From: Betaproteobacteria bacterium RIFCSPLOWO2_12_FULL_62_58 | GTDB lineage: Bacteria > Pseudomonadota > Gammaproteobacteria > Burkholderiales > SG8-41 | Direction: 5' to 3' | Assembly: GCA_001772005.1 (NCBI GenBank) | Contig: MERI01000048.1 | Span: 2,626-66,625, forward strand | Length of the DNA stretch: 64,000 bases | Shown here: positions 1 to 15,657 of the stretch, one piece after another | Layout: every line of letters begins with the position of its first letter | How positions within the stretch are numbered: the first letter of the stretch is position 1 | Made by a program: the position numbers and the translations under genes | The notes under the pieces: model-generated | Told to the model about the DNA's origin: nothing | Databases searched by the model: none | What the model saw: only the letters and a program-made list of their open reading frames with translations

Positions 1-2484
1 CAGCGTCGCGGCGTCAGACAACACAACTTCGAGGCTGGGGTCCGCCAACGCATGCTCATCGGGTCGCGATCTCCAGAAGGTCCGCACCGATTTATCCGAG
101 CGGGTCACTTGCAGCACGAAATCGCCGCTTTCGCAGCCCCTAAGCAATGTGTCAAGGATGGCTTGCCGGTTGAGCATTTTCGGCAACCGCGCAGTCGAAG
201 CGAATGCTCCCACCAAATCCTTCACGTAGCGCGATTTCTCCTGCGCCTGCCACAGGTTGAACGGGCCGCCCGGCAGCAGTGCCTCCGCATTGATCGCCGT
301 GCTTTCGATCCGCGCACGCTTGTCGTTGACGATCTTGATGAACAACGGCTCGTTGTCCACGTTCAATCGGAAAGCCGCAACCTCGTTGGCATCGTTGACT
401 GTGACCACGATGCAATAAGCCATCACGATATGCGAGGCCAGTTCACCGCGCGCGACCCTCAAATTGGTATCGAGCTGCGCAAGCCGTACCGTATCGACAT
501 CCTCGCGGCTCTTCAGCATCTCGCGCACCTGTTCCCACGCCAGCGCGTCGCGCACGCGTTCGCGCGCGAGCTCGATCCCATCCTTCGATGGCACCGCCAG
601 CACCACCGCGTTGCGGTTGTTCGCGCGCGGCCTGTCCGCTGTTGTGGTTTCGTCGATGAAACGACGCGCTTCCGCACTGGGCTTACCGGATTCCGAAGCT
701 GCTTTAGACCCCAGAACGGCGTAGTGAAACTCGCCGTCGTCCTCGATGTCCGCCGGACGTGCCGGCAGCATATGCACCGCCGCGCCCATAGTGCGGGCTC
801 CCTCGGTCAGTTTCTTGGTATTGCCGATCTCCTTTTCCAGGACCTGCTCCACGATAGTGGCCGTAATATAACTGCGGGCATCATGGTGCATCTGCTTGAG
901 GTTGGGCTTGGAACCAAGCCTCCATACCTTGGGCAATCCGCCATCTTTCTCCGTGGTGAAAGTGTCGTCGAGATACCAGGACACGTCCGCCCAGCGTGAC
1001 AACCCCTTTCCCAGCTCGATTCGGTCCGGAGATACCTGCCCCAGCATCACCATCAGTTCACGCGTCTGCGCACGCTGCCCGATAGGCTGCGAGTGCAGGA
1101 AGGTCGCGATGACCGCCTGTTCGATCTCGCGATTGGCAAGCCCCAGCGCGTCCTGCTGGATGTCGCGCGCTTTCTTCAGCTCGCCCTGAAGAATGGCCTG
1201 CCAGTCCTGGCGTTTGCCTTCGTACTGCTCGGACCGCGCAATGCTCGCCAGCTCGCGCGCGGCATCGTTGAGATTTTCGTCGCCGGGCGCAGACAGAAAT
1301 ACGGCTGGCCCAACCAGCGGCGCCGGATCGCCCCACTTCTCCGCGTCGCGCAACGCGGACGCAAAAGTGCGCAACACCCCGCGCGTGCGCTGGAAACCTT
1401 CAAGTTGCGTCCATTTCTCGAACAGCACCGTGGTAATGTCCGGATGAAACGGAAATGCTTCTGTGTAGCGCCCGTCCTCCTGGCCCAGTTGACGCTTGGT
1501 TTGATCGTCGAGTTCAGCAATACCCTTGAGCGCACTGACCACCTGCGCCTTCCATCCCGACCGATCTGTGTAGCTCTCCGGCGTAAACAGGCGCCGGCGC
1601 AGCACCTCCGCCACGTCCTGCGGCTCGACCGGCTGAATCCCGGCCTCGGCGACCCGCTGGAACATGTCGTAGAGCGCTTTCTCGACCTGTTTCCCAAGAT
1701 CGTCGCTCTTGCTCGGGTCCGAAGCGAGCAGCGATGCCACCAGTGCGCAGCCCTTCACACGTCCTACTGCCTGAGTCAGACACTGGAAAAACGTCTCCAG
1801 CTTCTTGATCCAGGCTTTGTCGGTGCTGGCTATCGTATGCGCCCACATCAGCACCTCGTCGAGCAACACCAGCGTCGCCAGTCCGTCCTTGGCAGGCAGC
1901 GCAAGCACGTCTTCCATGACGTTGGTGGCGGGGGGCGTCTCGCGCTCCTTGTCAGCGCTGCCCAGCAGCTTCAGTCCAGCTTCACCGCCGAGTTGCCACG
2001 CCAATGCACTCCAGGGCATCTTGAATCGCCTGATCTTGCCGTCGGGCGCTTTGACATCCATCCCCGTCTCCACATCGAGACGGTCAAATACCAGCGCCGC
2101 AACGCGCGCCTGCACCGGTGTCATTCCGATATGGTTGGTGAACTCCTCGATGGCGGGCAGCTTGGGCAGCTTGGCAGGGTCGGACACCAAGTGCACGAGC
2201 GTGATCAACGCATGCGTCTTGCCGCCGCCGTAAGTCAGCTGCAACTGCCGCACCGCTTTCTCGGATTTTCCGGCAAGGCGCAACACCACGTCGCGCGCGA
2301 GGTCGCGCAGCTTGGTGGTTGGATAGGTGAGCGCGAAGAACTCTTTCGGGTCGTGATAGACCGAGCGGTTCTTGTCCATCATCACGTCGTAGAGGTCCGC
2401 CGCGAACTCCTTCTGCGACAGCTCGCCGCTGCGGATGTCGGACCGCAGCGTGATGACCTGATGCCAGGGTTTCGTCTTAGCCAT
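1..2484 (-). CDS. DUF499-family P-loop ATPase (defence-island ATPase); 3' end cut off by window edge
   Basis: Absent from ORF track because it runs off the window. Minus-strand translation from ATG at 2484 reads MAKTKPWHQVITLRSDIRSGELSQKEFAADLYDV... with Walker A TYGGGKTHAL and Walker B LVLLDEV. The frame stays open to position 1 (828 codons). Confidence 0.85.
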   Translation of the reverse strand, partial: MAKTKPWHQVITLRSDIRSGELSQKEFAADLYDVMMDKNRSVYHDPKEFFALTYPTTKLRDLARDVVLRLAGKSEKAVRQLQLTYGGGKTHALITLVHLVSDPAKLPKLPAIEEFTNHIGMTPVQARVAALVFDRLDVETGMDVKAPDGKIRRFKMPWSALAWQLGGEAGLKLLGSADKERETPPATNVMEDVLALPAKDGLATLVLLDEVLMWAHTIASTDKAWIKKLETFFQCLTQAVGRVKGCALVASLLASDPSKSDDLGKQVEKALYDMFQRVAEAGIQPVEPQDVAEVLRRRLFTPESYTDRSGWKAQVVSALKGIAELDDQTKRQLGQEDGRYTEAFPFHPDITTVLFEKWTQLEGFQRTRGVLRTFASALRDAEKWGDPAPLVGPAVFLSAPGDENLNDAARELASIARSEQYEGKRQDWQAILQGELKKARDIQQDALGLANREIEQAVIATFLHSQPIGQRAQTRELMVMLGQVSPDRIELGKGLSRWADVSWYLDDTFTTEKDGGLPKVWRLGSKPNLKQMHHDARSYITATIVEQVLEKEIGNTKKLTEGARTMGAAVHMLPARPADIEDDGEFHYAVLGSKAASESGKPSAEARRFIDETTTADRPRANNRNAVVLAVPSKDGIELARERVRDALAWEQVREMLKSREDVDTVRLAQLDTNLRVARGELASHIVMAYCIVVTVNDANEVAAFRLNVDNEPLFIKIVNDKRARIESTAINAEALLPGGPFNLWQAQEKSRYVKDLVGAFASTARLPKMLNRQAILDTLLRGCESGDFVLQVTRSDKSVRTFWRSRPDEHALADPSLEVVLSDAATL

Positions 2485-2556
2485 AACTTCTTCCTCGCGT
2501 TATTGCTCGTTCATCGGCGTGATCGGTCCTCCAAGAGCGCCTTACAAAACAATAAT

Positions 2557-2600
2557 CTCCCTCTCCACCGATCACGGGGGAGAGGGTTGGGGTGAGGGGG
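2557..2600. repeat. GC-rich REP-like hairpin (CCCTCTCC / GGAGAGGG stem followed by GGTGAGG tail), family copy 1 of 4
   Basis: ccctctcc(2559-2566) pairs with ggagaggg(2579-2586). Related copies at 20248-20291, 32149-32187 and 34046-34081. Confidence 0.7.
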
Positions 2601-2627
2601 AGCATAAAGATCATTTCGTGAATGGCT

Positions 2628-5600
2628 TTAAGCACCCAGCGTAAGCGCGCCCTGCGCCGTGGCGCCGATCTTCCGCAAATGATTGGAAAGCTTTTCGAGA
2701 ATCGAGCATTCCTCGGCCTGCCCTTCCGCACGACTCTTTTCTATAAGCGATTGCACTAATTGATGAAATATATCGCTACGCCGCAGGCCGCGCTGCTCCA
2801 GATAGTCGTTTACCTTGTTCTCGTCGCCCGCCTTCCACAGCTGCATGAGCTTGTGCACCTGGTCGATCAGCGGCACCGGCTTGCCATTGGCCGGCTCCAC
2901 GCCGAGGTTACGATGTTTGCGCTGATTCCAGGCTTTGAGCTTGAACTGCCCGCCGCTGCCGCTACTCTCGTCCGAAGCGTCTTCATCCGTAACGTCGTCT
3001 GCCTCATCGCCCGACTCTTCATCTGCCGCCGCGCCTTTACCGCGCGAAAGAATCTCATACTGGTCGGCAAGCAACCGCTCGGACAAGCCGCACGAGACGG
3101 CATAGAGAATGCAGGCTCCAGCCGGAGCATCCTTTAGACCAAAGTCGTTGCGATGCAAAAGGTAATAGGTCGTGATGTCGTCGAGCGAAATATCCCGCGT
3201 CTCCGTTGCGCCCTCTCCGCCGGACAACACGCGTCCCACCACGAAGTCCACCACCATTCGGCGCACGTGTCGCAAGAACTCCGATACAGTCATCAGCGCG
3301 CCAGATTCAGTTGCTTTCTTGACTGCCGGATACTGACTATAGGCCTCAAGTGCAGGGCCAGTCGCAGCCCAAACAAAGTCAGGACCGCGAATACCGGCAT
3401 CCCAGAAATCGCGAAGGCGTTGTTTGATGTTTACTTCCATTTCCTTAAGAACATCAGTGTCCCAGCCAGCACGTTTAATTGGATCGCGCTTACGACAAAT
3501 CAGCCAAATGGAGGATGCAAGTGATGCACGACCAAAATTTCTTACACCGCCTCGCATTTCTGTAGCAATAGGCCAGCTCCCATCAACCACGAATCCAGCA
3601 CGAATGATCGCTGACACCAACGTTTCCCATGCATCGGGTTGCTTGTTAGCAAACACAACCACGAGACGGCCAGTGGGGACTAACTCCGCGTGGCACGTCG
3701 TGAAAGAATGAGCCATTCCATCTTCATAGTTCTTTTTTGACGCTATTACGTCGCCGCCAAATCGAGAAGCATCGTCGATTAGCTCTCCATCCTGCGTTTC
3801 ATGGTTCCACTTTGGGGCCAATGGCTTAGCAAACGCCGAATCAAACTCAGAGTTCAGCCCTACGAGTACTCTTCGAAGCCATACGTAGAAAAAATCCATA
3901 AGATCGGAATATGGGATAGCGTCGTAATACGGAGGATCCGTCACGATAATGTCATGTTCTCCAGCCGTCATTACGGCGCTCTGATTTAGGATTTTGGGAG
4001 ATTCCGTATGCCGAAACGCGCTGGTGTCTAATCGTTCAATTACCTGAGCGACGTTCGAAAGTGCCCCGAAGAAGAATCTATCATTGGGAGCTAAGGGATT
4101 GCCCTCGGCAAAATCCCAAGTAATCGGTAGGGCATAACGAAGAAACGTCTGCTTTACCTCGGCGGCTTGCGATTCCCAAATGCATATCGTGCTCAGGTAG
4201 TTTGCGGTTCTATCTAATGCTATCGCAAGCATGGCATGTATCGCCTCGCCCCATTCCTCTGAGAACAGTGTCCTTATGGCGGGCTTAGTTTCCCTGATCG
4301 ATCGAGTAAGGACCCCGAGAAAAAGAAGCTCTCGCAATGTAAACAGCTTCTTCCACTGATCAAAACCGTAAAGATCAACTGAAAACGCGCGGGCCGCACC
4401 CAATCCTGCTTTAGGCGTTGGTTCTTCCGGCAACCCAAACGGTATCTCGATAAATATACGCTCCAGATCCGATTCCGTTATCTCAGCAGATTTGATCTCA
4501 TGTACTGTCGGCAACCTGTATTCCTTATTCTGGAGGAACGCTACAACCACAGCGGTCATGACAGTCTTGAGACGACCCCCGCGACCCTCAAGCCGCAGGT
4601 CAGCCATTGTCATCGTCGTTCCACAACCCGGTATTGCACAGGTCACACCGGAGCGACTCATCGTTCCAGCGCTGATTCGCTTATCGTGCTCGCGCCGCTG
4701 TGCTGGATTGCCGCCTTGGACTTTGACGTCTTGATCGATGCCGAACACCACACCCGTCCTGTCGGCATTCGGCTCCAAGGTCAGCAGCACGCGTTTGTTG
4801 TCCTTCTTAGCCAGCCAGCGAGTCTTGAGCAGCGGCACGATTGCGCGGCACGCCTTGCACTTAACCGTGCGCGCCCAAAGGTAGGCAACCGTCGGTTTGG
4901 CTACCCAGCGTGGATTCGCAGGATTATCGAGATAGGTTTGGTCGTAACCCGCGTTCAACAGCTCGATCTGCGAATCGCCATCATCATTGGTCGGCACGAG
5001 CTTAAGTTGTTCCTCGTCCGCGCGCGCCAACGGCACCCGCGCATAGGGCTTCAAAGTGCAGAACTCGGCGTACGTCGGGTAATACTGCGCCAGTTCCTTG
5101 CGCGCCTGCTTGAGCACCCAATGTCCCCATGCGCGCACATGCCAGGCCAGGTCTGCGTCGAATTGCCCTTGGGAAATGGCGTGTTGCTCGAACATCTCCT
5201 TTTGCTTCTCCCCGCTCTCGGCTTTCCTGGCCAGCATGTCAAGCTGGATGCGGATATCTTTGGGCTTGAGCCCCAGCGCTTTGAAGTAACCCGTCATGAA
5301 GTCCCGATCCCGGAGCGCGAAATCGGGAAGCCGCCGTTTCTGCCCGGCGAGCTTCTGCGGATACTCCAACGTGCACTTGAGGATGAACCAGGCGACCGGA
5401 TTGATATCCACCGCCGTGACTTCGCAGCCGAGGCGCATTGCCTCCAGCGGAATCGCGCCGCCGCCGGCAAACGGATCGAGTACCTTCGGCGCGCGTCCGC
5501 CGTACGCCTTGCGTATCTCCTGCCTGAACCACTCCAGATCGGGACCCGATTCGCGGCCCCAATGCAGGATGCCTCCGACGGTTTCCTTGGTTTCGATTTC

Positions 5601-5876
5601 CTCGATCTTCCCCGAAGGCAGTTTTTTCTTCTTGAGGGATTTTTCCACCGTGCCGGCCAGGCGTTTGAGAATCTCATCCCGTTTCTTCTTGTCGCCCGGA
5701 TCGGGAAGCAGCGTCGCGATCAACACCGCGCGCGACGCCGCCAACGGTCGCCGTGCCGGCCAGATGTGCAACGTGGAGATATGCCCATGCCGCACGTTCT
5801 TCTCGTGCACCGAGTCGAGCGACGTCTGTTCGAGCGGGAAGGCGACTTCGATCAGGCGTTTGCCGTTGTTGCTCAT
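2628..5876 (-). CDS. DUF1156-family DNA methyltransferase (N6-A/N4-C type)
   Basis: 1082 aa. N-terminal signature HIWPARRPLAASRAV, SAM motif I VLDPFAGGGAIPLEAMRLGCEVTAVDINP, catalytic motif IV TDPPYYD, internal Cys4 ribbon CKAC...CAIPGC. Confidence 0.9.
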   Translation of the reverse strand: MSNNGKRLIEVAFPLEQTSLDSVHEKNVRHGHISTLHIWPARRPLAASRAVLIATLLPDPGDKKKRDEILKRLAGTVEKSLKKKKLPSGKIEEIETKETVGGILHWGRESGPDLEWFRQEIRKAYGGRAPKVLDPFAGGGAIPLEAMRLGCEVTAVDINPVAWFILKCTLEYPQKLAGQKRRLPDFALRDRDFMTGYFKALGLKPKDIRIQLDMLARKAESGEKQKEMFEQHAISQGQFDADLAWHVRAWGHWVLKQARKELAQYYPTYAEFCTLKPYARVPLARADEEQLKLVPTNDDGDSQIELLNAGYDQTYLDNPANPRWVAKPTVAYLWARTVKCKACRAIVPLLKTRWLAKKDNKRVLLTLEPNADRTGVVFGIDQDVKVQGGNPAQRREHDKRISAGTMSRSGVTCAIPGCGTTMTMADLRLEGRGGRLKTVMTAVVVAFLQNKEYRLPTVHEIKSAEITESDLERIFIEIPFGLPEEPTPKAGLGAARAFSVDLYGFDQWKKLFTLRELLFLGVLTRSIRETKPAIRTLFSEEWGEAIHAMLAIALDRTANYLSTICIWESQAAEVKQTFLRYALPITWDFAEGNPLAPNDRFFFGALSNVAQVIERLDTSAFRHTESPKILNQSAVMTAGEHDIIVTDPPYYDAIPYSDLMDFFYVWLRRVLVGLNSEFDSAFAKPLAPKWNHETQDGELIDDASRFGGDVIASKKNYEDGMAHSFTTCHAELVPTGRLVVVFANKQPDAWETLVSAIIRAGFVVDGSWPIATEMRGGVRNFGRASLASSIWLICRKRDPIKRAGWDTDVLKEMEVNIKQRLRDFWDAGIRGPDFVWAATGPALEAYSQYPAVKKATESGALMTVSEFLRHVRRMVVDFVVGRVLSGGEGATETRDISLDDITTYYLLHRNDFGLKDAPAGACILYAVSCGLSERLLADQYEILSRGKGAAADEESGDEADDVTDEDASDESSGSGGQFKLKAWNQRKHRNLGVEPANGKPVPLIDQVHKLMQLWKAGDENKVNDYLEQRGLRRSDIFHQLVQSLIEKSRAEGQAEECSILEKLSNHLRKIGATAQGALTLGA

Positions 5877-5892
5877 GGAGTTTTCCTCGTCC

Positions 5893-6513
5893 TTATTTCC
5901 AATATGCCGGCCGCTGCAGCACGAACCCGTCGGCTCTCGTGACCGTGGGCGGCAGCTGTGACTGACGCACTTTGGCTTCGCCGACCGTGAAATACCCGCT
6001 TGCTGCTTTTGTCAACGCGATTGACTGACGCCCCGGAGGCTGTGCGATCACAATGCGCTTGTGGGGAAAACGTGCCAGAACCTGCCGCACCGGCGTGGTG
6101 AGATCGCTGTCCGCGGAGACGAGCAATGCCGTATCGAAGCGGTCCTCGAACGCATCGGCCAATAGCTGTACGGCGATATTGACGTCGGTCATCTTCTCCT
6201 CGTAGTCCATCCAGGTTGCGCCGCACTTGCGGCACTGTCTGGGCTTTTCGAGGTAATGACCAAAGTGCAATGTGAGTTCCGGCAGCGTACCGAGTGCTTC
6301 CAGGTAGGCTCCCTGGCGCCGCATGTCCTGGCTGTTGTGTCCGTTGTCGCGAATGCGGGTTGTAAAATAGTGAGCCCCGCACAGCATCTGATCGGGCTTG
6401 AGCAGTTGTCGCGACAACGTCACGAGATCCAGCCAGTAGTATTTCCTCCAGCCTTTGTGCCTCAGACCGAAGTAAAGGTTGAATCCGTCGATGTAGGCAA
6501 TGACCCGGTTCAT
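5893..6513 (-). CDS. NYN-domain (LabA/PIN-like) putative ribonuclease
   Basis: 206 aa. N-terminal VIAYIDGFNLYFG and SADSDL acidic motifs typical of NYN. Stop lies 16 nt upstream of the methylase ATG. Confidence 0.75.
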   Translation of the reverse strand: MNRVIAYIDGFNLYFGLRHKGWRKYYWLDLVTLSRQLLKPDQMLCGAHYFTTRIRDNGHNSQDMRRQGAYLEALGTLPELTLHFGHYLEKPRQCRKCGATWMDYEEKMTDVNIAVQLLADAFEDRFDTALLVSADSDLTTPVRQVLARFPHKRIVIAQPPGRQSIALTKAASGYFTVGEAKVRQSQLPPTVTRADGFVLQRPAYWK

Positions 6514-6591
6514 CGGAATACTCCCATCTTCGGCTCGAAACCTGGCTTGACACAGACCGCGCTCGCCTCCATACTTACACTCATAAACCCC

Positions 6592-6612
6592 GCCGGAGAT
6601 CGCATCTCCGGC
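6592..6612 (-). terminator. 9-bp-stem hairpin after helicase stop (weak terminator or processing site)
   Basis: gccggagat cgc atctccggc; on the minus strand it is followed by GGGGTTTAT. Confidence 0.3.
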
Positions 6613-6616
6613 CCGA

Positions 6617-6645
6617 CGCCTCCCTCGTGGAGGCGTTTCTTTTTG
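6617..6645 (+). terminator. Canonical intrinsic terminator facing the plus strand (antisense to the operon)
   Basis: cgcctcc ctcgt ggaggcg followed by tttctttttg. No credible plus-strand gene lies upstream. Confidence 0.45.
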
Positions 6646-6658
6646 CTTAGCTGGTCGC

Positions 6659-9600
6659 TCACTGCCGCACCTCAGCGGCTTGGAGAATCGCCGAAGCCGA
6701 GATCACGAAACTACCCTTGGCACGGACCATCAGCGTTCCGAACGGGTCCTGGACTCGCACAAGTCGGGGCGATCCGGTGGCACAATCGAATACGGCGTAT
6801 AGCCAGTACCGGCCCCGGAGATTGATCGCCTTCGCCCACTCGTTCTCGGTCAGTTCGACATCACCCGTTTCGACCCGCCCCTTGACCTCGATCGCTCGCT
6901 CGCCGCCAGCGTGGCGCTTTGATAACACATCGAATCCGGGGTAATCGGTCAAGCCTGCAACCCGCGCCTTCGCCGGGATCGAAACGTCTCTCACATCGGC
7001 ACCCTGGCTGATCTCGTGAGCGATGGTGATTTCCATCGCGATCCGCTCGACTTCCGCATCGCGGGCCTTGATGTCCTCAGCGTCAAATGACGGCTGCACC
7101 AGTGCCGTCGCGATTAACTCAACTTCGCCCGGCTGAATGAGCTCGACCTCGCGGCGCAACTGCCCCACCGCAAGCTCGCGCCGCTCGGACAGGCTGCGCT
7201 GCTGATTCTTGATGCGCTCAAGTTCGGCTGCGGCACCTTTGTCGCCGTCTCGCGCTTTCTCCGTGTACCGCTTCCGCGCGGAAGCAAGTTCCGATTCCTG
7301 GTAATCATAGGCACGGCGCAGATACTCTTCGGCGTGCCGCATACGCCCTTGCTCGGATAACAAATTTATTTCGCTCAACTTTTTTAGAATGACCTCTCTG
7401 ACATGCCGCTCGGTGGCGGCGCGGTAGGTTGTTCCCTGCGCAAGAAACGGCACGGCGGATGAATCGACCTTGCCTCCGGGTTTCAGCAAAAGCAGTTGTT
7501 CGACGGGCGCTTCGTCCAGCCGGTTATCCGCAAATTGCTGCACGCCGACCAATCGCTGTTCAAGCACTTCCTCCTGATGTAGTGAGGGGAATCCCTGGTC
7601 GACGCCGCGGACTACGCTGACGCGGGCGACATGAAACAGATACGGCCGGGTCGCAGAGGGATCGATGAATACCGCACCCTGACGCCCAGCCGATCGACAA
7701 CGCTCGATTGCTAGCGCGGACAGCCGCTCGAACACCGGCTCGCCTGGGTGCAGGAAAACCGCGTCGCGCCGGTCGTCCGGCCGATAGACAGTCAACCGGT
7801 TGCGGGCTGAGTCCGGGTAGCTTTCGAGCAGCGGCATTACGCCGTCGAGCGCGCCGCGCGTGCGTGCGCGCACGAAGAATGTGGCACCCAGATCACCCAC
7901 CAGATCGACGCCGATGACCGGCGCCGCATGTTCAAGATAGCGCCGCACGTAGCCCGGCAGCAGCCGACGCATCTCCTCGATATGCATGGCTTCCTGCAGC
8001 TTGGGCAGGTCCCGCATGACCTCACCGCCTTTGCCGTAAATGCTTTCTTCGCGCGCTGCGATTGCGCGAACCTGCTCCACGGTGAGCTGCCCCGCCAGAT
8101 CCATGGCCGCCCGGTCCGCCGCATCGTCGGAGAGTATGGCCTTCTGTAAGTAATCGGTCATTGATACTCCTTCGAATATCCGGCCGATGACGTCGAACAC
8201 CTTGTCCGAGCCGAGCGCGATGCGAATCTCTTCCAGTTTGTCGAGCAGGATCTTGACGACACGGCCTTCGCGAGTCTTGCCGGCAACGAGGTTGAGAATC
8301 ACAACCCGGTCTTTTTTCTGGCCGTAGCGGTGGATGCGGCCCATGCGCTGCTCGAGCCGCGCTGGATTCCACGGCACGTCGTAGTTGATCAGCACCCAGC
8401 AGAACTGCAGGTTGATACCCTCAGCCGCGGCGTCCGTACCCACAAAGAAGCGGGCTCCGTTCTCCTCGCCTGCGGCCTGCCCGTGGGGCCGGCGGAAACG
8501 TTCGACCTGGGCGTCGCGCTGTTCGAAGTCGAGGCCGCCGTGGATAAAAGCGACCTGGCCCGCGTATCCCATGGCATCGAGGCGGCGCATCAGAAATTCG
8601 AGCGTGTCCTTGTGCTCGGTGTAAATAATGACCTTCTGATTTTCGAACTGGGGATTGCGTAACAGCTCCCGCATCTTCTCGAACTTGGACTCGCGGCCCT
8701 GTTCGTAAACCCGCTCGGCAAGGCGAATGAGTTCGCGGACTTTTTCGCGTTCGGCGATAAGTTCGGCGAGCGACGTGGCGACGAAAGCGCCCAGTGCTTC
8801 CGCTTCGTCCTTCTCGTGCTCTTCCACCCCGTTGTCGGTCGATTCCTCTTCGGAGGATTTCTCGTCAAGCGTATCGTGAACCTGGCGATCGAGTTTTTTC
8901 TGCTGCTCGCGCAACTGCTCTTCCGGAATCCGCCCGGACCGGATGTCGTCGATCAGCGATTCGAGGCGATCAAAACGCCGGCGGAATGAGCACATGAGCG
9001 CCCAGGTGCTGCTCGCGAGCCTGCGCTGGAAAACCGTCATCGCAAAACGGGCTGCAGATCGATTGAGCAATCGCGCCTGGTTGTAGTAATGGCGGATGTA
9101 TTGGGTGGTTTCGTCGTAGAGTGTTTGCTCACTGACGTTGCCTTGGGTGAGATCGTAGCTGTGAGTGTCGCAGGTGCGCAGTGCGTAAAGCGGGCGTCCG
9201 TGCAGGTCAACCATCTCTTCCTTGACGCGGCGGATGAAGTAGCGGCGCCGGGCGTCATTCGGGAAAAGCTTAAACGCCGTCTCGGTACTAAAGAGTTCCG
9301 GCTCCAGCAGGCGCCACAGGCAATAATACGGGTACTCCTTACCCATGTGCGGCGTCGCCGTCAGCAGCAACAGGTGATGCGTGTTCCACGGCAGGCGCCA
9401 TTCGTCCGGGATATCGCGCACGCCTGCCAGCGCCTCGGCGAGACGATAGCGGTCGGTTGGCCTGAAAGTGCCGTCGGAGTCGCGATTAGCAGAGAGTTTG
9501 TGCGCCTCGTCGAATACCACGAGGTCATAAGGCAGGGTAGCGGGATCGCCCAGTGCCTTGAACAGCGTGGCTCCGCGCAGCGAGTCGACGCTGACGATGA

Positions 9601-10231
9601 CCAGATCGCCGTCCGGGCCGGAGAACGGATTACCCTTTCGGGCATCGGCGCTGGAAACGATCCGGAACGTCAACTGGAACAGGTTGCGCATTTCCCGCTC
9701 CCAGTTGCCGATCAGCCCGGCTGGGGAAACAATCAATACGCGGCGTATGGTACGGCGGGTGAGGCTCTCGCGGACATACAGCCCGGTCATGATGGTCTTG
9801 CCCGCACCGGCATCGTCCGCGAGCAGGAACCTCAGGCGCGGCTGCGTCAGCATTCGTTCATAGACCGCAATGCGCTGGTGGGGCAGCGGATCGATCTGGC
9901 TGATTTCCGCCGCAAATGCCGGATTGAACAGATGGCCGTAGCTCAGGCGCTCGCCTTCGACGAGCACCCTCAATTCATTAGCGTCGCCGAGGAAGTCGAG
10001 CTTGGCGTCTGCCACTGCCACGACGGCAGACGGCGTCTGGGGCTGCCCCTTCGTCAAGGCGAAACCTCCACCCCGAAGCCCCTCCAGCTTCTCGAGGGCC
10101 ATCCGGGATGGGCGCACCTGTCCGTTTTCCCAGCGGTTCAGCGTTGCGAAGGAGACGCCGAGCAGCTTGGCCAGTCGCTGTTGCGTCAGACCGAGAGTTT
10201 TTCGAAGGCTCCTAATTTCTTCGGGCGTCAT
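6659..10231 (-). CDS. SNF2/DEAH-family helicase with N-terminal XRE-type HTH and C-terminal DUF3883 (PD-(D/E)xK-like) domain
   Basis: 1190 aa. HTH LGLTQQRLAKLLGVSFATLNRWENG; motif I LADDAGAGKT; motif II VVFDEAHKL; motif VI QRMGRIHRYGQ. C-terminus GFDVLS...RAIEVKGR...LTENEW...YWLYAV. Confidence 0.9.
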   Translation of the reverse strand: MTPEEIRSLRKTLGLTQQRLAKLLGVSFATLNRWENGQVRPSRMALEKLEGLRGGGFALTKGQPQTPSAVVAVADAKLDFLGDANELRVLVEGERLSYGHLFNPAFAAEISQIDPLPHQRIAVYERMLTQPRLRFLLADDAGAGKTIMTGLYVRESLTRRTIRRVLIVSPAGLIGNWEREMRNLFQLTFRIVSSADARKGNPFSGPDGDLVIVSVDSLRGATLFKALGDPATLPYDLVVFDEAHKLSANRDSDGTFRPTDRYRLAEALAGVRDIPDEWRLPWNTHHLLLLTATPHMGKEYPYYCLWRLLEPELFSTETAFKLFPNDARRRYFIRRVKEEMVDLHGRPLYALRTCDTHSYDLTQGNVSEQTLYDETTQYIRHYYNQARLLNRSAARFAMTVFQRRLASSTWALMCSFRRRFDRLESLIDDIRSGRIPEEQLREQQKKLDRQVHDTLDEKSSEEESTDNGVEEHEKDEAEALGAFVATSLAELIAEREKVRELIRLAERVYEQGRESKFEKMRELLRNPQFENQKVIIYTEHKDTLEFLMRRLDAMGYAGQVAFIHGGLDFEQRDAQVERFRRPHGQAAGEENGARFFVGTDAAAEGINLQFCWVLINYDVPWNPARLEQRMGRIHRYGQKKDRVVILNLVAGKTREGRVVKILLDKLEEIRIALGSDKVFDVIGRIFEGVSMTDYLQKAILSDDAADRAAMDLAGQLTVEQVRAIAAREESIYGKGGEVMRDLPKLQEAMHIEEMRRLLPGYVRRYLEHAAPVIGVDLVGDLGATFFVRARTRGALDGVMPLLESYPDSARNRLTVYRPDDRRDAVFLHPGEPVFERLSALAIERCRSAGRQGAVFIDPSATRPYLFHVARVSVVRGVDQGFPSLHQEEVLEQRLVGVQQFADNRLDEAPVEQLLLLKPGGKVDSSAVPFLAQGTTYRAATERHVREVILKKLSEINLLSEQGRMRHAEEYLRRAYDYQESELASARKRYTEKARDGDKGAAAELERIKNQQRSLSERRELAVGQLRREVELIQPGEVELIATALVQPSFDAEDIKARDAEVERIAMEITIAHEISQGADVRDVSIPAKARVAGLTDYPGFDVLSKRHAGGERAIEVKGRVETGDVELTENEWAKAINLRGRYWLYAVFDCATGSPRLVRVQDPFGTLMVRAKGSFVISASAILQAAEVRQ

Positions 10232-10260
10232 TTACTCGTTCGTGTTGAGTAATTAAATGC

Positions 10261-10290
10261 AATATAGCATATGATATAAGATGGTTTCAA
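10261..10290 (-). promoter_or_regulatory. Candidate sigma70 promoter of the helicase operon
   Basis: Minus strand reads TTGAAA-18 nt-TATATT about 30 nt upstream of the helicase ATG. An imperfect palindrome around CATATG lies in the spacer next to the -10. Confidence 0.4.
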
Positions 10291-10547
10291 CGGTAACGTG
10301 AAAAAGTACCTCAAGATATGCCGTCGGTCGGACCAGCAGGCTGATTCAGGCGATCAGTCTATCAGTAGAACATGCTTATTCTTCAATAGGATGCGAGAAT
10401 TACGCCGTCGATAAGATCTAGAAAATTCGCTATCCAACAGGGCCGGCTTCCCAACCCGCTTACTGCGCACAACCCAGCAACCAAACCGGACTTATGCCGT
10501 GTACCCGTGAAAAAGTTGTGGATAGCCCACTGGCGTCGGGATAAAAT

Positions 10548-10578
10548 TTGAGCTTGCCAAAACTTACCAATATGGTAA
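10548..10578 (+). promoter_or_regulatory. Candidate TA promoter with overlapping palindromic operator
   Basis: TTGAGC-17 nt-TATGGT. Palindrome TTACC-AATAT-GGTAA (10564-10578) overlaps the -10; it loosely resembles an MqsA-type operator. Confidence 0.4.
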
Positions 10579-10585
10579 ATTTCTT

Positions 10586-11071
10586 GTGATTGCTGGCCAC
10601 CCGAATCCTTTTGTCAGGCAGAGACCCGAACTGCCGTGGCCACCGCCGACCGAGCACGACGACCGCAGCCGCGTCATACCTGAAAAGATTTGGGAACTTG
10701 CCGATATCAAGGCAATCGCACAGGCGCAAGTGGACCAGGAAGCCGAAACCTTACTGTCGGCAATTACCGACGATTGCATTGAAGACCTTCAGAAACTTGA
10801 ATTTACTGCTCGCGATGTAGCCGAGCGGATACTGCAACTTCAAGCGCACCACTATGACAAGTCGATGTGGTGCATGAGAAGCAAGAGACCTGGGGTCAAG
10901 GTACCTGATGAACAGCTGTGGTTTCCCTGTGATGCCTATGTGCTTCGAGTTAAAGAACGCGTACCCACCACAGGATGGGAAGGGTTTCTTGATTACTACG
11001 TCAAGCTTTGCCTTACACCGAGCAAGAAGGTAATCGTATTGATTTCCTTCCATCCTCCTAAGCTTTTTTGA
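10586..11071 (+). CDS. mqsR: MqsR-family toxin (start codon uncertain)
   Basis: 161-aa ORF. HHYDKSMW matches E. coli MqsR DFYKSM, and the C-terminal VIVLISFHPPK matches VLIVSFKEK. Toxin-first gene order as in mqsRA. About 35-40 extra N-terminal residues relative to E. coli. Confidence 0.7.
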   Translation: MIAGHPNPFVRQRPELPWPPPTEHDDRSRVIPEKIWELADIKAIAQAQVDQEAETLLSAITDDCIEDLQKLEFTARDVAERILQLQAHHYDKSMWCMRSKRPGVKVPDEQLWFPCDAYVLRVKERVPTTGWEGFLDYYVKLCLTPSKKVIVLISFHPPKLF

Positions 11072-11092
11072 ATCATTACTCCCAAGACAAAT

Positions 11093-11704
11093 ATGGAAAA
11101 GAAAACCTCCTGCGTGATGTGCGGAAACGAACACCTTCATCTCCAGGAATCCGAGAAGTTGGTGGAAATTGACGGCGCCGAGGTCAAGATTCCTTTCCGT
11201 AAGCATTGGTGTGAAGAATGCGGGAGCGAAATGGCTCTCAATGAGGATCTCCGCTTCAACGCCCGCGCCATGCGTCATGCAAGAAAGAAGCACCGCGGGA
11301 TGCTCACGGGCGAGGAGATTCGACAGATTCGCAAGCAATTGAGACTCAACCAGGAGCAAGCCGCGAAGCTCTTCGGTGGCGGGCCAGTGGCATTTTCCAA
11401 GTATGAAAACGAGGAAGTCAGTCAGAGTGACGCCATGGACAGGCTGATTTGGATCGTTGGAATGATTCCCGGTTTAGCCCAACTGCTTGCGAAGCGACTA
11501 AAGATTGACTTAGCCATGGAGGCAGAGGTCACGCTGGAAAAAACAGCCACTGAATTCAAAGAAGAATACGTAACTCAAGCTCGGGTGGCCATGGAAGCAA
11601 CTTCGAGCTATTTCAGAGGGTTCAGTGCCTTCTCAACGGCGAGTAATGAGGAAATCTATAAACCCGACGAAAAGGCTGGGGCCGTTGAAGGAGTTGCCGC
11701 TTAG
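11093..11704 (+). CDS. mqsA: MqsA-family antitoxin (Zn-ribbon + XRE HTH) with long C-terminal extension
   Basis: CVMCG...CEECG zinc ribbon. IRKQLRLNQEQAAKLFGGGPVAFSKYE matches MqsA VRKKLSLTQKEAAEIFGGGVNAFSRYE. 203 aa versus about 131 aa in E. coli. Confidence 0.85.
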   Translation: MEKKTSCVMCGNEHLHLQESEKLVEIDGAEVKIPFRKHWCEECGSEMALNEDLRFNARAMRHARKKHRGMLTGEEIRQIRKQLRLNQEQAAKLFGGGPVAFSKYENEEVSQSDAMDRLIWIVGMIPGLAQLLAKRLKIDLAMEAEVTLEKTATEFKEEYVTQARVAMEATSSYFRGFSAFSTASNEEIYKPDEKAGAVEGVAA

Positions 11705-11718
11705 GCCGTGAGGATTTG

Positions 11719-12246
11719 ATGCGTCCAAGCCCTATCCAGTTGCGGCACCTGATTTACAACAAGGTTGCTGTATCACCGAATCCTTCGGAAGAGGAATCTC
11801 CTGGCCGAGCAGTTGGTTTCGATTTCGACGGGGTTAACATCCGAGCAAAGGTAGGAATAGCACGCAAGCCCGGACAAGAGCGCGATCCGCGCGATTTTCT
11901 CGTCAATCTGGAAATTAGAATCGACAGCAAGGAAGGGAAGGCCGCTCCTTACGATATCGACGTGGGGGTAGTAGGTGTATTCGAAGTCTTACCGTCACTC
12001 GCAAGAGAAAAGAGAGAAGATTTGGTGACGGTAAATGGCGCTTCTATCTTGTATGGCGTGATCAGAGAGGCAGTGCTCTCGTTGACATCACGTTTTGTAG
12101 GCGGCGCTCTCACTCTTCCAGGGATGAACTTTGAGGATGATGCGCCATCACTGCGCGCGGCTCGCGCGAAAACGCACTCTTCCCCCGTCGAAGCATCGAG
12201 AACGTCAACGCCTACAAAGAAGCTACGACGAAAGCGTTCGGCCTGA
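11719..12246 (+). CDS. SecB-like chaperone (TAC-system chaperone candidate)
   Basis: N-terminal [17 protein letters not shown] and [21 protein letters not shown]...LPGMNFED resemble SecB signature regions. ATG at 11719 follows GTGAGGA. Third gene after mqsRA. Confidence 0.65.
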
Positions 12247-12289
12247 ACTGCGCTAGTGGCGCCGTAACTCGGAGTTGCGTTACAATGTG

Positions 12290-12362
12290 CGCCCCCGAGG
12301 AGCGTTGCAACGGGCCATACGCGCCCGCCAGGCTCGGGGTGTCAACCGCAACGGCGCTCACG
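12290..12362 (+). promoter_or_regulatory. SAH (S-adenosylhomocysteine) riboswitch
   Basis: CCGAGGAGCGUUGCAAC...GCCAGGCUCGG...GCAACGGCGCUCAC matches the conserved SAH-element cores. It lies directly upstream of ahcY; TACAAT -10 at 12281-12286. Confidence 0.8.
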
Positions 12363-12395
12363 AGCTTTTTTCTTTTTTTTGGAAAGGAGAGCGTG

Positions 12396-13814
12396 ATGAA
12401 CGCCGTAATCAAGTCTTCCTCCAAGCAGGATTACCATGTAGCTGATATCAAGCTCGCCGATTTCGGCCGCAAGGAAATGGCGATCGCCGAAACCGAAATG
12501 CCGGGCCTGATGGCGGTGCGCGAGGAATACACGGGCCAGCAGCCGCTCAAGGGCGCGCGCATCGCGGGGTCGCTGCACATGACGATACAGACCGCGGTGT
12601 TGATCGAGACTCTGGTCAAACTCGGCGCGGAGGTGCGCTGGGCCTCCTGCAACATCTTCTCGACCCAGGATCACGCGGCGGCGGCGATCGCGGCGGCCGG
12701 CATTCCGGTGTTTGCGTTCAAGGGCGAAAGCCTCGAGGAGTACTGGGCGTTCACGCACCGCCTTTTCGAGTGGCATGACGGCGGCGCGCCCAACATGATC
12801 CTCGACGACGGCGGCGACGCCACGTTGCTCGCGACCCTCGGCTCACGCGCCGAACGGGACCCCGCGCTCGTCGCCAAGCCGGCCAACGAAGAAGAGCGGG
12901 TCCTCTACGCGGCGATCAGGAAACGCCTCGAAACGAGGCCCGGCTGGTATTCGAAGATCCTCGCCGGAATCCGCGGCGTGACCGAAGAGACCACCACCGG
13001 CGTGCACCGGCTCTACCAGATGGAAAAGGACGGGCGGCTGCCTTTTCCCGCCATCAACGTCAACGACTCCGTGACCAAGTCGAAGTTCGACAACCTTTAC
13101 GGCTGCCGCGAGTCGCTGGTCGACGGCATCAAGCGCGCGACGGACGTCATGATCGCCGGCAAGATCGCGCTCATTGCCGGCTACGGCGACGTCGGCAAAG
13201 GCTGCGCGCAAAGCTTGCGGGGCCTCGGCGCCATGGTGTGGGTGACCGAGATCGACCCGATCTGCGCGCTGCAGGCGGCGATGGAAGGATACCGCGTGGC
13301 CACCATGGACGAGGCGGCAGACAAGGCCGACATCTTCGTCACCGCCACCGGCAACATCAACGTCATCACCCACGAGCACATGGTCAGGATGAAACACAAC
13401 GTGATCGTGTGCAATATCGGGCATTTCGACTCGGAGATCGACGTCGCGAGCCTGCGGCAATACCGGTGGGAGAACATCAAGCCGCAGGTCGACCATGTGA
13501 TCTTCCCCAGCGGCAAGCGGCTGATCGTGCTCGCTGAAGGGCGGCTCGTCAATCTCGGCTGCGCGACCGGGCACCCGAGTTTCGTCATGTCGAACTCGTT
13601 CACCAATCAGGTGCTGGCGCAGATCGAACTGCATGCCAACACCGGCAAGTACGAGAACAAGGTGTACGTGCTGCCGAAGCAGCTCGACGAGCGGGTGGCG
13701 CGGCTGCACCTGAAGAAACTGGGCGTTCAACTCACCACGCTCACCGAGGCGCAGAGCAGCTATCTCGGCGTCGACATCAACGGACCGTACAAGCCGGAAT
13801 ACTACAGATACTAA
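12396..13814 (+). CDS. ahcY: adenosylhomocysteinase
   Basis: [39 protein letters not shown]... NAD motif [20 protein letters not shown] at 12384. The ORF-track start at 12285 would read through the riboswitch. Confidence 0.95.
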
Positions 13815-13816
13815 CG

Positions 13817-13899
13817 CGGAACGAGGAACGATGAACGCGGAACGGCTGGTGCTTGCGCCGGTATTCTTTGACGTTCATCGTTCATCACTCATCGTTCAT
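13817..13899. repeat. Inverted arrays of 4 + 4 heptamers (NNGAACG / CGTTCAT) around a 27-nt spacer
   Basis: cggaacg aggaacg atgaacg cggaacg (13817-13844); cgttcat cgttcat cactcat cgttcat (13872-13899). Confidence 0.85.
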
Positions 13900-13911
13900 C
13901 ATTGCCACTAA

Positions 13912-14757
13912 ATGCTGTCGCAGAAAAAATTCCCGCGCATCTTCAGCTTCGAGTTCTTCCCGCCCAACACGCCGGAAGGAACGGAAAAGCTGCGCGCCAC
14001 GACCAGGCAACTGGCCCAGCTCAAGCCGGAGTTCTTTTCAGTGACCTTCGGCGCCGGCGGTTCCACGCGCGACCGCACGCTCGGCACGGTGCTCGACATC
14101 CGCGCCCAGGGCTACGCGGCAGCGCCGCACATCTCGTGCGTTGCCTCCACGAAGGAGAGCATCCGCGACATGCTGCAGCGCTACAAGGATAGCGGCATCA
14201 AGCATCTCGTCGCGCTGCGCGGGGATTTGCCGTCGGGGCTCGCCGCGGCGGGCGAGTTTCGCTATGCCAACGAGCTCGTCGAATTCATCCGCAAGGAGTT
14301 CGGCAACCAATTCGTGATCGAAGTTGCGGCGTATCCCGAGTATCACCCGCAGGCGAAGAGCGCCCAGGACGATCTGCTCAACTTCAAGCGCAAGATCGAA
14401 GCCGGCGCGGATTCCGCGATCACTCAGTATTTCTATAACGCCGACAGCTACTACCACTTCGTCGATGAATGCGAGGCGATGGGCGTCGACATCCCGATCG
14501 TGCCCGGCATCATGCCGATCGGCCGCTTCGCGCAGCTCGCGCGCTTCTCCGATGCCTGCGGCGCCGAGATCCCGCGCTGGATCAGGAAAAAGCTCGAGGG
14601 CTACGGCGATGACACCGCGTCAATCCGCGCCTTGGGTCTCGACGTGGTGACCGCGCTGTGCGACAACCTCCTGCGGAACGGCGCGCCCGGCCTGCACTTC
14701 TATACCCTCAACCAGGCCGGCCTCACCACCACGATCTGGCAGCGGCTGGGACTGTAA
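13912..14757 (+). CDS. metF: methylenetetrahydrofolate reductase
   Basis: FSFEFFPPNTPEGTEKL...SVTFGAGGSTRDRT... typical MetF; follows ahcY. Confidence 0.95.
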   Translation: MLSQKKFPRIFSFEFFPPNTPEGTEKLRATTRQLAQLKPEFFSVTFGAGGSTRDRTLGTVLDIRAQGYAAAPHISCVASTKESIRDMLQRYKDSGIKHLVALRGDLPSGLAAAGEFRYANELVEFIRKEFGNQFVIEVAAYPEYHPQAKSAQDDLLNFKRKIEAGADSAITQYFYNADSYYHFVDECEAMGVDIPIVPGIMPIGRFAQLARFSDACGAEIPRWIRKKLEGYGDDTASIRALGLDVVTALCDNLLRNGAPGLHFYTLNQAGLTTTIWQRLGL

Positions 14758-14797
14758 GAGTCGTGATTAAGCCGCCGATTACCGGTTTTTTCTACGA

Positions 14798-15310
14798 TTA
14801 GTTCGCAGGCACGGCGGCGACCACGTCGATCTCGATGAGGAATTCCGGTTCCGCGAGGCGACTGACGATGAGCAGCGTGTTGGCGGGAGGAGCTTTGAGG
14901 TTCCTGAAGCGCGCGATCCGCGCGTCGCGGAAATTCTTGATGTGCGCCGCGTCGGTCAAATATGTGGTCGTCTTGACGACATTGTCCCAGCCGGCACCCG
15001 CAGCCTTGAGCGCAAGCTCAATGTTGTCGTAGACCGCATTGGCCTGCGCTCGAACATCGCTCGATTGCACCTTGTAGTTCGCATCGGCCGCGGTCTGGCC
15101 CGAGAGGAAAATCATCCGCGCGCCCTGAACTTCGACCATCTGCGTGAGGCGCGGCGAACTCCACAGGCCCGCAGGGTTGCTATGCCGCAACATGAACGGC
15201 GGGGTCCCGGAGTCGGCAACCATCTGCGATGTCGCCGCAGCGCTGAATGTAGTCCATCGTCTCAGCAACGAGGACAGAACGTCGGGGATTCCAAGTAACA
15301 GTTGGATCAT
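14798..15310 (-). CDS. RidA/YjgF-family protein with N-terminal extension
   Basis: IFLSGQTA...VVKTTTYLTD...EIDVVA core. Strong AGGAGG RBS before the ATG at 15310. Confidence 0.8.
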   Translation of the reverse strand: MIQLLLGIPDVLSSLLRRWTTFSAAATSQMVADSGTPPFMLRHSNPAGLWSSPRLTQMVEVQGARMIFLSGQTAADANYKVQSSDVRAQANAVYDNIELALKAAGAGWDNVVKTTTYLTDAAHIKNFRDARIARFRNLKAPPANTLLIVSRLAEPEFLIEIDVVAAVPAN

Positions 15311-15623
15311 CAGCTCCTCCTAGGAAGCGATCGGGTATGCCTGTCGGCAGGCGATACTAGCACAGACACCAACACGGCTTGGCGGGCCGTTGCCGTCCCG
15401 CACGGCTATACTGTCGCCTTGACCCGGCACGCCAACTCCGCTCGTGATCGGGAATGCCCTGACAACGCAAGAAAAAGGGAGGCTTTCGTGCAAAACGGAT
15501 CGCCTGCGGCGCCGCAAACCGCGACCGACGTGGTGAGCACGGGATTGCTCTTGGGTCTCGCGATCTTATTGATCCGCTGAGACGGCGCTATCGCGCCGCG
15601 GCCGGGGGGCGGCCCCGGTGCCG

Positions 15624-15657
15624 GTGACTTTCTTTTGCTCACCCAAAAGAAAGTTAC
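15624..15657. repeat. Strong hairpin inside a gene-less region
   Basis: gtgactttctttt gctcaccc aaaagaaagttac: 10 perfect bp plus 2 more after one mismatch. Confidence 0.6.

Follow-up and report, generated by a model that had tools for sequence, protein, structure and literature searches.

Hma was named in 2021 as a candidate defence system composed of a helicase, a methylase and an ATPase (Payne et al. 2021, PMC8565338). Embedded genes were later found in 62.7% of 1,485 Hma loci and assigned to 434 protein families, and nine Hma-embedded candidates were named, of which HEC-09 is a NYN protein that has three aspartates in common with MARF1 and that, when tested alone, gave no protection from any phage that was assayed (Payne et al. 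2024, bioRxiv 10.1101/2024.01.29.577857). Here we analyse a locus of this kind in a 64,000-nt stretch of contig MERI01000048.1 from Betaproteobacteria bacterium RIFCSPLOWO2_12_FULL_62_58, in which a NYN gene of the HEC-09 family and a gene for a small RNA (sRNA) lie between hmaA, coding for the helicase, and hmaB, coding for the methylase. The whole 64,000-nt stretch is called the window and all plain coordinates are positions within it; numbers such as L001 or L012 are labels of collected homologous loci or contigs.

HmaA of Halomonas meridiana, expressed in Escherichia coli, defends alone against T4 in a helicase- and NOV_C-dependent manner; its NOV_C domain is a Mn2+-dependent nickase with the residues D1084/E1104/K1106/E1121, and the hmaA-hmaB junction was recognised as an insertion hotspot (Liu et al. 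2024, PMC11232893). In 2025 Hma was reclassified as a Type-1, DUF499-centred system related to bacteriophage exclusion (BREX), that is, a BREX-related (BR) system. In this scheme a fusion of helicase and restriction endonuclease (REase) is the primary effector and assorted back-up nucleases are located within or beside the loci. An HEPN RNase is fused to the ATPase in 1370 of 2446 Type-1 BR taxa (~56%), PIN-type RNases are uncommon back-up effectors, and neither NYN nor an RNA partner is mentioned (bioRxiv 10.1101/2025.10.09.681413).

We read positions 1–10290 as a horizontally acquired Hma (Type-1 BR) island which holds a self-contained NYN-sRNA cassette of ~780 bp in its hmaA-hmaB junction, and give this reading, including the mechanisms proposed below, a probability of about 0.7. 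Hma or Type-1 BR systems and the embedded NYN protein (HEC-09) are already catalogued, and the locus is one more instance of them, its host being an uncultured bacterium with G+C-rich DNA known from bioreactor metagenomes; the NYN-associated sRNA appears not to have been described before. The following features make up the island.

1–2484, minus strand: hmaC, with the N-terminal 828 of its 1091 amino acids (aa) inside the window.
2485–2627, minus strand: hmaB-hmaC spacer of 143 nt, empty of genes here and containing the CCCTCTCC/GGAGAGGG hairpin.
2628–5876, minus strand: hmaB, 1082 aa, matching PADLOC HmaB and Pfam DUF1156.
5893–6513, minus strand: gene of the NYN/LabA-like RNase, 206 aa, matching PADLOC HEC-09 and Pfam NYN.
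6547–6575, plus strand: predicted sRNA promoter, TTGACA-17 nt-CATACT, pointing away from NYN.
6583–6644, plus strand: NYN-associated sRNA of ~62 nt, recognised by covariance model, covariation and predicted terminator.
6659–10231, minus strand: hmaA, 1190 aa, matching PADLOC HmaA, with helix-turn-helix (HTH), SNF2 and NOV_C domains.
10261–10290, minus strand: candidate promoter of the hmaA operon, TTGAAA-18 nt-TG-TATATT, a consensus match only, ending 30 nt upstream of the hmaA ATG.

The order hmaA, NYN, hmaB, hmaC on one strand, with a single embedded protein gene, fits the PADLOC definition of Hma, which asks for clustered, co-directional genes and allows a few embedded ones. A preliminary description of this DNA, made from the letters alone, had reported four co-directional minus-strand genes, and this arrangement was confirmed with spacers of 145 nt (hmaA-NYN), 16 nt (NYN-hmaB) and 143 nt (hmaB-hmaC). 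It had also noted that the ATPase gene was missing from the list of open reading frames since the frame runs off the edge; indeed this fourth frame is open from 2484 to position 1, over 828 aa, without a stop. Every motif it quoted could be located at a definite position in HmaA, HmaB or HmaC.

Protein identities were assigned by Pfam and PADLOC profile searches, in which the ATPase was tested as the 828-aa partial protein. HmaA matches PADLOC PDLC00659 at 1e-160 over protein residues 71–1148, with 535 bits versus ~320 for the next best profiles (DrmD, BrxH), and in Pfam Helicase_C (1e-21), SNF2-rel_dom (7e-10; SNF2-rel_dom/ResIII) and NOV_C, formerly DUF3883 (3.3e-14). Its helicase motifs are DDAGAGKT at aa 139 (9794–9817), VVFDEAHKL at aa 238 (9494–9520) and QRMGRIHRYGQ at aa 628 (8318–8350). 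The NOV_C domain, a nuclease domain of the PD-(D/E)xK type, covers aa 1061–1157 (6761–7051) and has D1101, E1115, K1117 and E1129 intact in the pattern D...ExK...E. An XRE-type HTH at aa 6–50 (10082–10216; HTH_3, 3e-12) was absent from the preliminary description. Sequence matches of HmaA in PDB are confined to RapA/SNF2 cores, the best being RapA (4e-20), and the PDB sequence search gave nothing for NYN, HmaB and HmaC. HmaB (PADLOC PDLC00661, 2.3e-113; Pfam DUF1156, 1.3e-17) carries the DUF1156 signature HIWPARRPLAASRAV at aa 37 (5724–5768), S-adenosylmethionine-binding (SAM) motif I VLDPFAGGGAIPLEA at aa 132 (5439–5483) and the catalytic motif IV DPPYYD at aa 647 (3921–3938), and is by these motifs a DUF1156-type N6-adenine DNA methyltransferase. 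The HmaC part matches PADLOC PDLC00662 (6.5e-81) and Pfam DUF499 (3.6e-18), with Walker A GGGKTH at aa 86 (2212–2229) and Walker B LLDEV at aa 207 (1852–1866); an N-terminal HEPN fusion was not detected on it by Pfam. All domain families that the preliminary description had proposed for profile searches (DUF499, DUF1156, SNF2/Helicase_C, NOV_C alias DUF3883, and NYN) were matched. With the HmaA, HmaB and HmaC profiles all hit, the locus is Hma by the PADLOC definition, and the earlier identification of the triad of DUF499, DUF1156 and helicase as Hma stands on these matches and on the naming of 2021.

Compared with the described Hma loci, the window has the same three families in the same order and orientation, an SNF2 helicase with a NOV_C domain of the D...ExK...E pattern, and an insertion hotspot between hmaA and hmaB. 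It differs by the N-terminal XRE-type HTH of HmaA, the PADLOC profile alignment beginning only at residue 71, and by its cargo, which is Septu in the Halomonas locus but NYN plus sRNA here; the window lineage is known from sequence alone. With Type-1 BR systems it shares a DUF499 ATPase, a DUF1156 N6-methyltransferase, a helicase to which a C-terminal PD-(D/E)xK REase is fused, and auxiliary nucleases within the locus, and Pfam detected neither PglZ nor a helicase-borne HKD nuclease; unlike many of them its ATPase is free of the HEPN fusion. BREX type 3 and DISARM (defence island system associated with restriction-modification) resemble it in a homologous helicase (weaker BrxHII and DrmD matches), an N6-methyltransferase, an ATPase like that of the origin recognition complex (ORC) and a logic similar to restriction-modification (RM), but the Hma profile is best for every window protein. 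Membership in either system was rejected: the island and its flanks hold no PglZ, BrxA, BrxB, BrxF or BrxL, and with regard to DISARM there is no DrmB (DUF1998) or DrmC (PLD), only weaker DrmD/DrmA matches on the helicase core of HmaA.

The surroundings of the island could be followed beyond the window on contig L001, which is 100% identical to window 1–16000 and extends 4.1 kb past the left edge. Past the end of the full HmaC there (1091 aa, with the DUF499 match) come metK in convergent orientation, two genes for lipid A acyltransferases and one for a glycosyltransferase. No pglZ or brxL was found in the 4 kb beyond the left end of the island, so that the locus does not turn out to be a known BREX system, an outcome which the preliminary description had left to the genes beyond the edge. 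On the right side a divergent three-gene module is followed by an S-adenosylhomocysteine (SAH) riboswitch, ahcY and metF. Counted from hmaC up to and including the SecB-like gene of that module (window 1–12290 plus L001 16514–18500), the island is thus placed between metK and SAH riboswitch/ahcY/metF. Its G+C content of 0.52–0.57 is below that of the flanks (~0.63), which fits acquired DNA.

The embedded protein matches the PADLOC HEC-09 profile at 6.2e-95 over profile positions 1–203 of 203, and Pfam NYN (PF01936) at 3.1e-8. In the NYN alignment the residues D9, D110 and D135 are invariant, D137 varies hardly at all, and H83, H86, C94 and C97, which may bind zinc, are invariant too. An AlphaFold2 model (pLDDT 84.4) shows a NYN/LabA-like fold, for which the best PDB match in Foldseek is 2qip (VPA0982; E 2.8e-9, TM 0.69 on target), which we take to be a LabA-like NYN protein. 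The full-length profile match, the NYN/PIN-like fold with conserved aspartates and the position between hma genes agree with the published HEC-09. That family was, however, published as a single-protein candidate, whereas in the present analysis a conserved sRNA gene is its consistent companion. The identical NYN protein sequence is also found on several metagenome contigs. An 80% identical NYN protein of Candidatus Accumulibacter adjunctus (P0015; L123/L124) is named '6-hydroxy-3-succinoylpyridine 3-monooxygenase HspA' by NCBI, probably a propagated misannotation of NYN-domain proteins.

A block of ~100 nt upstream of NYN is conserved in all aligned Hma and non-Hma loci. The sRNA within it consists of the tail AUAAACCCC at its 5' end, a first hairpin of 9 bp with the apex GAUAGCAUC (conserved apex pattern GAU(A/C)GCAUC), a CCCGA linker and a G+C-rich hairpin at 6615–6637, which together with the following U-run (UUUCUUUUU) forms the predicted terminator. 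Its minimum free energy is -31.2 kcal/mol (z -5.3). The predicted promoter matches the consensus at 10 of 12 positions. In 13 loci the -35 and -10 boxes are conserved at fixed spacing, the spacer sequence itself being variable; in most phyla these boxes are of the sigma-70 type, in the Bacteroidota loci of the type TAnnTTTG.

NYN homologues were collected in a scan with one genome per species, yielding 80 loci with proteins of 43–75% identity. The sRNA is present at 73 of these 80 genome loci and in many phyla, its lineages including Proteobacteria, Bacteroidota, Chloroflexota, Planctomycetota, Actinomycetota and Deinococcota. In the window its gene, promoter and terminator included, covers 6547–6647 on the plus strand; the other loci with the sRNA fall within L009–L088, L123–L128, L132 and L191. 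A covariance model, R1, was built from 13 seed sequences, whose MAFFT alignment is 96.8% paired with 7 covarying pairs. Searched over 1.26 Mb of NYN loci, R1 found 91 instances with E-values of 1e-24 to 1e-6; over 0.5 Mb of Hma loci in which this NYN clade is absent it found nothing comparable. Over 0.4 Mb of viral contigs it detected the element with the closest homologue only and with none where NYN is less than ~42% identical. In the alignment of the 91 instances 96.3% of the cells are paired, and compensatory changes occur in 16 of 17 pairs; this alignment was fitted to the model itself, and the independent MAFFT alignment of the 13 seeds agrees. Cells with double changes number 267, compared with 66 in shuffles, none of 500 shuffles reaching the observed value, and controls with slid partners brought the pairing down to 37–47%. 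There are 68 G-U versus 10 A-C cells. Because of this G-U excess, the U-run on the plus strand only and the correct placement of the promoter boxes, we assign the sRNA to the plus strand. A search of Rfam 15 over 6300–6900 gave no match at E<=10, and no literature was found that links NYN or HEC-09 to an sRNA, an antitoxin RNA or an RNA motif. A mimicry of the tRNA anticodon loop by hairpin 1 was considered and dropped, since the triplet at its apex lacks conservation as an anticodon.

In 78 out of 90 instances the sRNA is on the strand opposite to NYN, its 5' end lying 28–193 nt upstream of the NYN ATG (median 67 nt). In the usual divergent layout only about 35–70 nt separate the two, and as the sRNA promoter fills this space, the NYN leader must cross the sRNA gene; the Bacteroidota loci were inspected for a distinct promoter of NYN between its ATG and the start of the sRNA, and the space there is too short for one. 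A minority of loci are organised differently. In L062 and L042 promoter, a single RNA unit, terminator and NYN follow each other on one strand. Three contiguous sRNA units with one common promoter are found in L012 (7747–7928), and L025 (8657–9034) has four units of ~105 nt, each with its own promoter, which are located downstream of NYN and convergent with it. The sRNA is multiplied also in L011, L013, L128, L032 and L052, the number being two units in loci other than L012 and L025. Several loci therefore hold 2–4 sRNA copies per NYN gene, while the NYN gene is never duplicated, and in at least three loci the placement of the sRNA makes antisense overlap with NYN impossible. No conserved sequence (a cassette end or recombination site) was found past the sRNA terminator or the NYN stop. 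The mobile unit is exactly sRNA plus NYN, ~780 bp, and NYN has its own sRNA and promoter in Hma and non-Hma contexts alike.

Most NYN copies are found without Hma. Only 11 of the 80 homologous loci are flanked by Hma, and at 47 of the 57 well-flanked ones (at least 4 kb on both sides) there is no Hma gene. Next to the non-Hma copies the gene content is heterogeneous: of the families known to Pfam or PADLOC, none is present in more than 3 of 101 neighbours. Some copies are on plasmids. A minority of the solitary copies has defence genes of other kinds as neighbours (Type IIG and Type III RM, Cas9, Cas3, Dnd, DruA). Standalone copies occur even at 73–74% identity to the window protein, one of them adjoining a Type ISP enzyme. 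The complementary picture emerges from metagenome loci whose HmaA, HmaB and HmaC are 53–59% identical to those of the window. Here the hmaA-hmaB junction is empty (8–38 nt) in L103, L104 and L106, is occupied by Gabija-, Septu/HEC-01-, CBASS-, PDC-S02- or Schlafen-like genes in other relatives (CBASS being the cyclic oligonucleotide-based antiphage signalling system), and in further ones contains a NYN gene whose product is only 33–36% identical. Conversely, in five genomes NYN is 66–71% identical to that of the window but HmaA, HmaB and HmaC only 25–32%. These incongruent similarities indicate different histories of NYN and Hma. Because NYN is mostly Hma-free, its junction empty or otherwise filled in relatives, its similarity incongruent with that of Hma, and because it possesses its own RNA gene, it is, judged from such comparisons, a separable cassette rather than a lineage-specific subunit. 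This evidence sharpens the reading of embedded genes in defence operons.

For the Hma core our proposal follows what is known of the families. HmaB would mark host DNA by N6-adenine methylation and HmaC, a DUF499 ATPase resembling ORC and STAND (signal transduction ATPases with numerous domains) proteins, would act as the sensor which recognises or scans DNA. On unmarked DNA the SNF2 motor of HmaA would translocate and its NOV_C domain nick or cut; the N-terminal XRE HTH probably serves operon autoregulation or protein tethering. The sRNA would hold NYN inactive in an antitoxin-like manner, either by binding to the NYN protein, as in type III toxin-antitoxin (TA) systems, or by pairing with the NYN leader. 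If infection halts host transcription or degrades the sRNA, NYN would be freed and cleave RNA, adding behind Hma a second layer of defence, an abortive one. What embedding would then bring is co-transfer and read-through transcription from hmaA and not a physical fourth subunit. The sRNA is probably an antitoxin-like regulator of NYN; we favour the inhibitor role because only the RNA is amplified, because the layout of a few loci is type III-like and because cloned HEC-09 was silent in phage screens. A wider proposal, which we put forward tentatively and at somewhat less than even odds, is that HEC-09 is a two-part module in which the NYN RNase is checked by a dedicated sRNA of ~62 nt. This would be a new RNA-antitoxin family, type III-like or a hybrid of types I and III, forming a ~780-bp cassette in at least 10 phyla with a preference for the hmaA-hmaB junction as a second-line abortive effector, and the control of NYN by the sRNA would explain the silence of cloned HEC-09 in the phage screens.

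Two kinds of known TA systems invite comparison. The type III systems ToxIN, CptIN and TenpIN likewise combine an endoribonuclease-type toxin with a neighbouring small structured RNA; the RNA is amplified in some NYN loci, two loci have the layout promoter-RNA-terminator-toxin, and an abortive-infection logic is plausible. They differ in the fold of the toxin, which here is NYN, with no Pfam or PADLOC match to ToxN/AbiQ. Furthermore, the type III antitoxin is a co-directional array of 34–36-nt repeats, whereas the NYN sRNA mostly lies on the opposite strand as one unit that has a terminator of its own, as is the case in the window. The type I system SymE/SymR is similar in that its nuclease-like toxin gene has a short antisense-oriented RNA encoded at the 5' end, and in the usual divergent layout the leader of NYN probably runs across the sRNA gene. 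However, the NYN sRNA is conserved in sequence across phyla far beyond the needs of a cis-antisense RNA, and several loci place it co-directional or downstream, where it cannot be antisense to NYN.

Several points weigh against our reading. The Halomonas HmaB did not act as a protective methylase for T4 (PMC11232893), which leaves the RM-like model of the Hma core unproven. The sRNA promoter and terminator are predictions from consensus and covariation, and roles of the RNA as activator, cofactor or guide, substrate mimic or decoy are equally conceivable. In the close clade of NYN proteins (at least 66% identity to that of the window, 13 loci sampled) the gene is embedded in Hma in 10 of 13 loci, always in the hmaA-hmaB junction and in the same orientation, which leaves room for some functional coupling between NYN and Hma, and the distance of only 16 nt from the NYN stop codon to the hmaB start suggests co-translation with hmaB. 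The preliminary description had gone further and seen here a four-component version of Hma, with NYN as its dedicated nuclease, that might reveal the effector arm; as an integral part of this Hma lineage NYN would be analogous to the HEPN domain fused on many DUF499 ATPases. Besides the co-directional embedding and the short gap, this would accommodate the failure of HEC-09 alone to protect against phages, and the HEPN fusion so common among Type-1 BR taxa is missing from the window HmaC. We nevertheless hold such a fourth component to be improbable, and this part of the earlier description was not upheld. NYN is the catalogued HEC-09 and has its conserved RNA gene and promoter outside Hma as well, most well-flanked copies and even close homologues stand without Hma, related Hma loci are without it or have different cargo in the hmaA-hmaB junction, and the similarities disagree in both directions. 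The HEPN domain and NYN are found together in a Thermus locus (see below), HmaA alone confers defence in Halomonas, and the nuclease of Hma has been assigned there to the NOV_C nickase, whose residues are intact in the window. That NYN is a back-up RNase layer which benefits from embedding is possible and was already proposed in the literature.

A cassette that separates from Hma so readily might also be a purely selfish addiction module, with the sRNA as RNA antitoxin and without any role in defence, which gathers at permissive hotspots such as hmaA-hmaB. Its compact ~780-bp unit without conservation outside, the mostly solitary copies in heterogeneous neighbourhoods, those on plasmids, the missing defence phenotype in the published screen and a separate TA module of the MqsRA/SecB type next door would all be in accordance with this. 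But the close clade is enriched inside Hma, a minority of the solitary copies adjoins other defence genes, and the negative outcome of an E. coli screen covering about a dozen coliphage groups is weak evidence that a defence role is absent; we therefore consider an exclusively selfish module unlikely. Still another question is whether the conserved element is an RNA gene at all, or instead a feature of the DNA or the sense strand, such as the terminator of the upstream gene combined with a NYN promoter or leader, or a recombination site of the cassette. The two strands are nearly equal in folding energy (-31.2 and -31.1 kcal/mol), the upstream boundary of the mobile unit coincides exactly with the element, and tandem duplications occur. 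Yet the excess of G-U over A-C cells, the conserved U-run on the plus strand only and the promoter boxes correctly spaced on that strand, including the TAnnTTTG type of the Bacteroidota loci, speak for an RNA, as does the separate promoter of each of the four L025 copies. Moreover, in L062 and L042 the orientation to NYN is flipped with the element intact, which is impossible for a leader or attenuator, and an explanation other than an RNA gene appears very improbable.

The sRNA of the cassette is a motif that Rfam does not contain and that is found with this NYN family in ~90% of the sampled loci. Should the sRNA be the antitoxin or regulator of NYN, HEC-09 would become an RNase module under RNA control that is tractable to experiment, the negative phenotype published for it would be explained, and the few known RNA-antitoxin systems with enzymatic toxins would gain a new family. 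If the two-part module is true, it also offers a direct experimental handle on the trigger of the module. A cultured carrier, and hence a possible experimental model, is Thermus oshimai JL-2, whose plasmid pTHEOS01 (L191, NC_019387.1 198933–213547) codes for HmaA, the sRNA (E 9e-16), HEC-09 (6e-98) and an HmaC with an N-terminal Swt1-type HEPN domain, with an IS4 transposase in the stretch where hmaB is expected; hmaA, the sRNA and NYN lie there at about 202.3–206.6 kb of NC_019387.1. Since HEPN-HmaC and NYN coexist there, NYN is not simply a replacement of HEPN. In E. coli genomes no match to the cassette DNA was found, so that E. coli offers no natural model.

The mechanism of embedding was left open in the Hma papers cited here. 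In Hma loci with stacked cargo, short fragments of the hmaB 5' end (aa 7–50/73) are located between successive cassettes (L092 7067–7336, L118 4236–4568, L114 6997–7149, L107 5312–5524, L096 3598–3672 and L097 9001–9075), and the leftovers in L092 and L118 also hold the hmaA 3' end (aa ~1103–1187). These fragments suggest that cargo is gained by recombination within the conserved hmaA and hmaB ends; the window's own spacers contain no hmaA or hmaB remnants. The gap between hmaB and hmaC, which in relatives measures 44–2175 nt and in several of them has genes inside, is a second junction for cargo insertion. The more distant NYN lineage mentioned above (33–36% identical) is located directly upstream of hmaB in L094 (4710–5336), L099 (4538–5161), L114 (6350–6973), L118 (3589–4212) and L096 (3870–4493), where the sRNA motif is absent, and looks like an independent recruitment of NYN RNases to one slot. 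In three related loci, L111 (4668–5380), L115 (10116–10840) and L117 (10098–10810), an insertion of ~710 nt, which may represent an additional domain or some intervening element, splits the HmaB alignment after about aa 370.

The three-gene module divergent from hmaA (10586–12246, plus strand) has no PADLOC matches. Its genes code for a 161-aa protein with a weak match to the MqsR toxin (6e-3), a 203-aa MqsA-like antitoxin (1e-17) and a 176-aa SecB-like protein (6e-5, under the Pfam cut-off), a layout which we take to resemble toxin-antitoxin-chaperone (TAC) systems. The N-terminal HTH of HmaA (aa 1–42; 10106–10231) is 43% identical to the HTH of the MqsA-like antitoxin (11303–11428; tblastn 7e-5) and also gives a weak match to Pfam MqsA_antitoxin. 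The two domains may have a common origin or share operator recognition.

A scan of the whole window against Rfam gave the SAH riboswitch (RF01057; 12291–12366, plus strand, 67 bits), located ahead of ahcY, as the only family at gathering score. This position implies that the mechanically derived open reading frame of 509 aa (12285–13814) starts too early, and ahcY is more likely the 472-aa gene called on L001.

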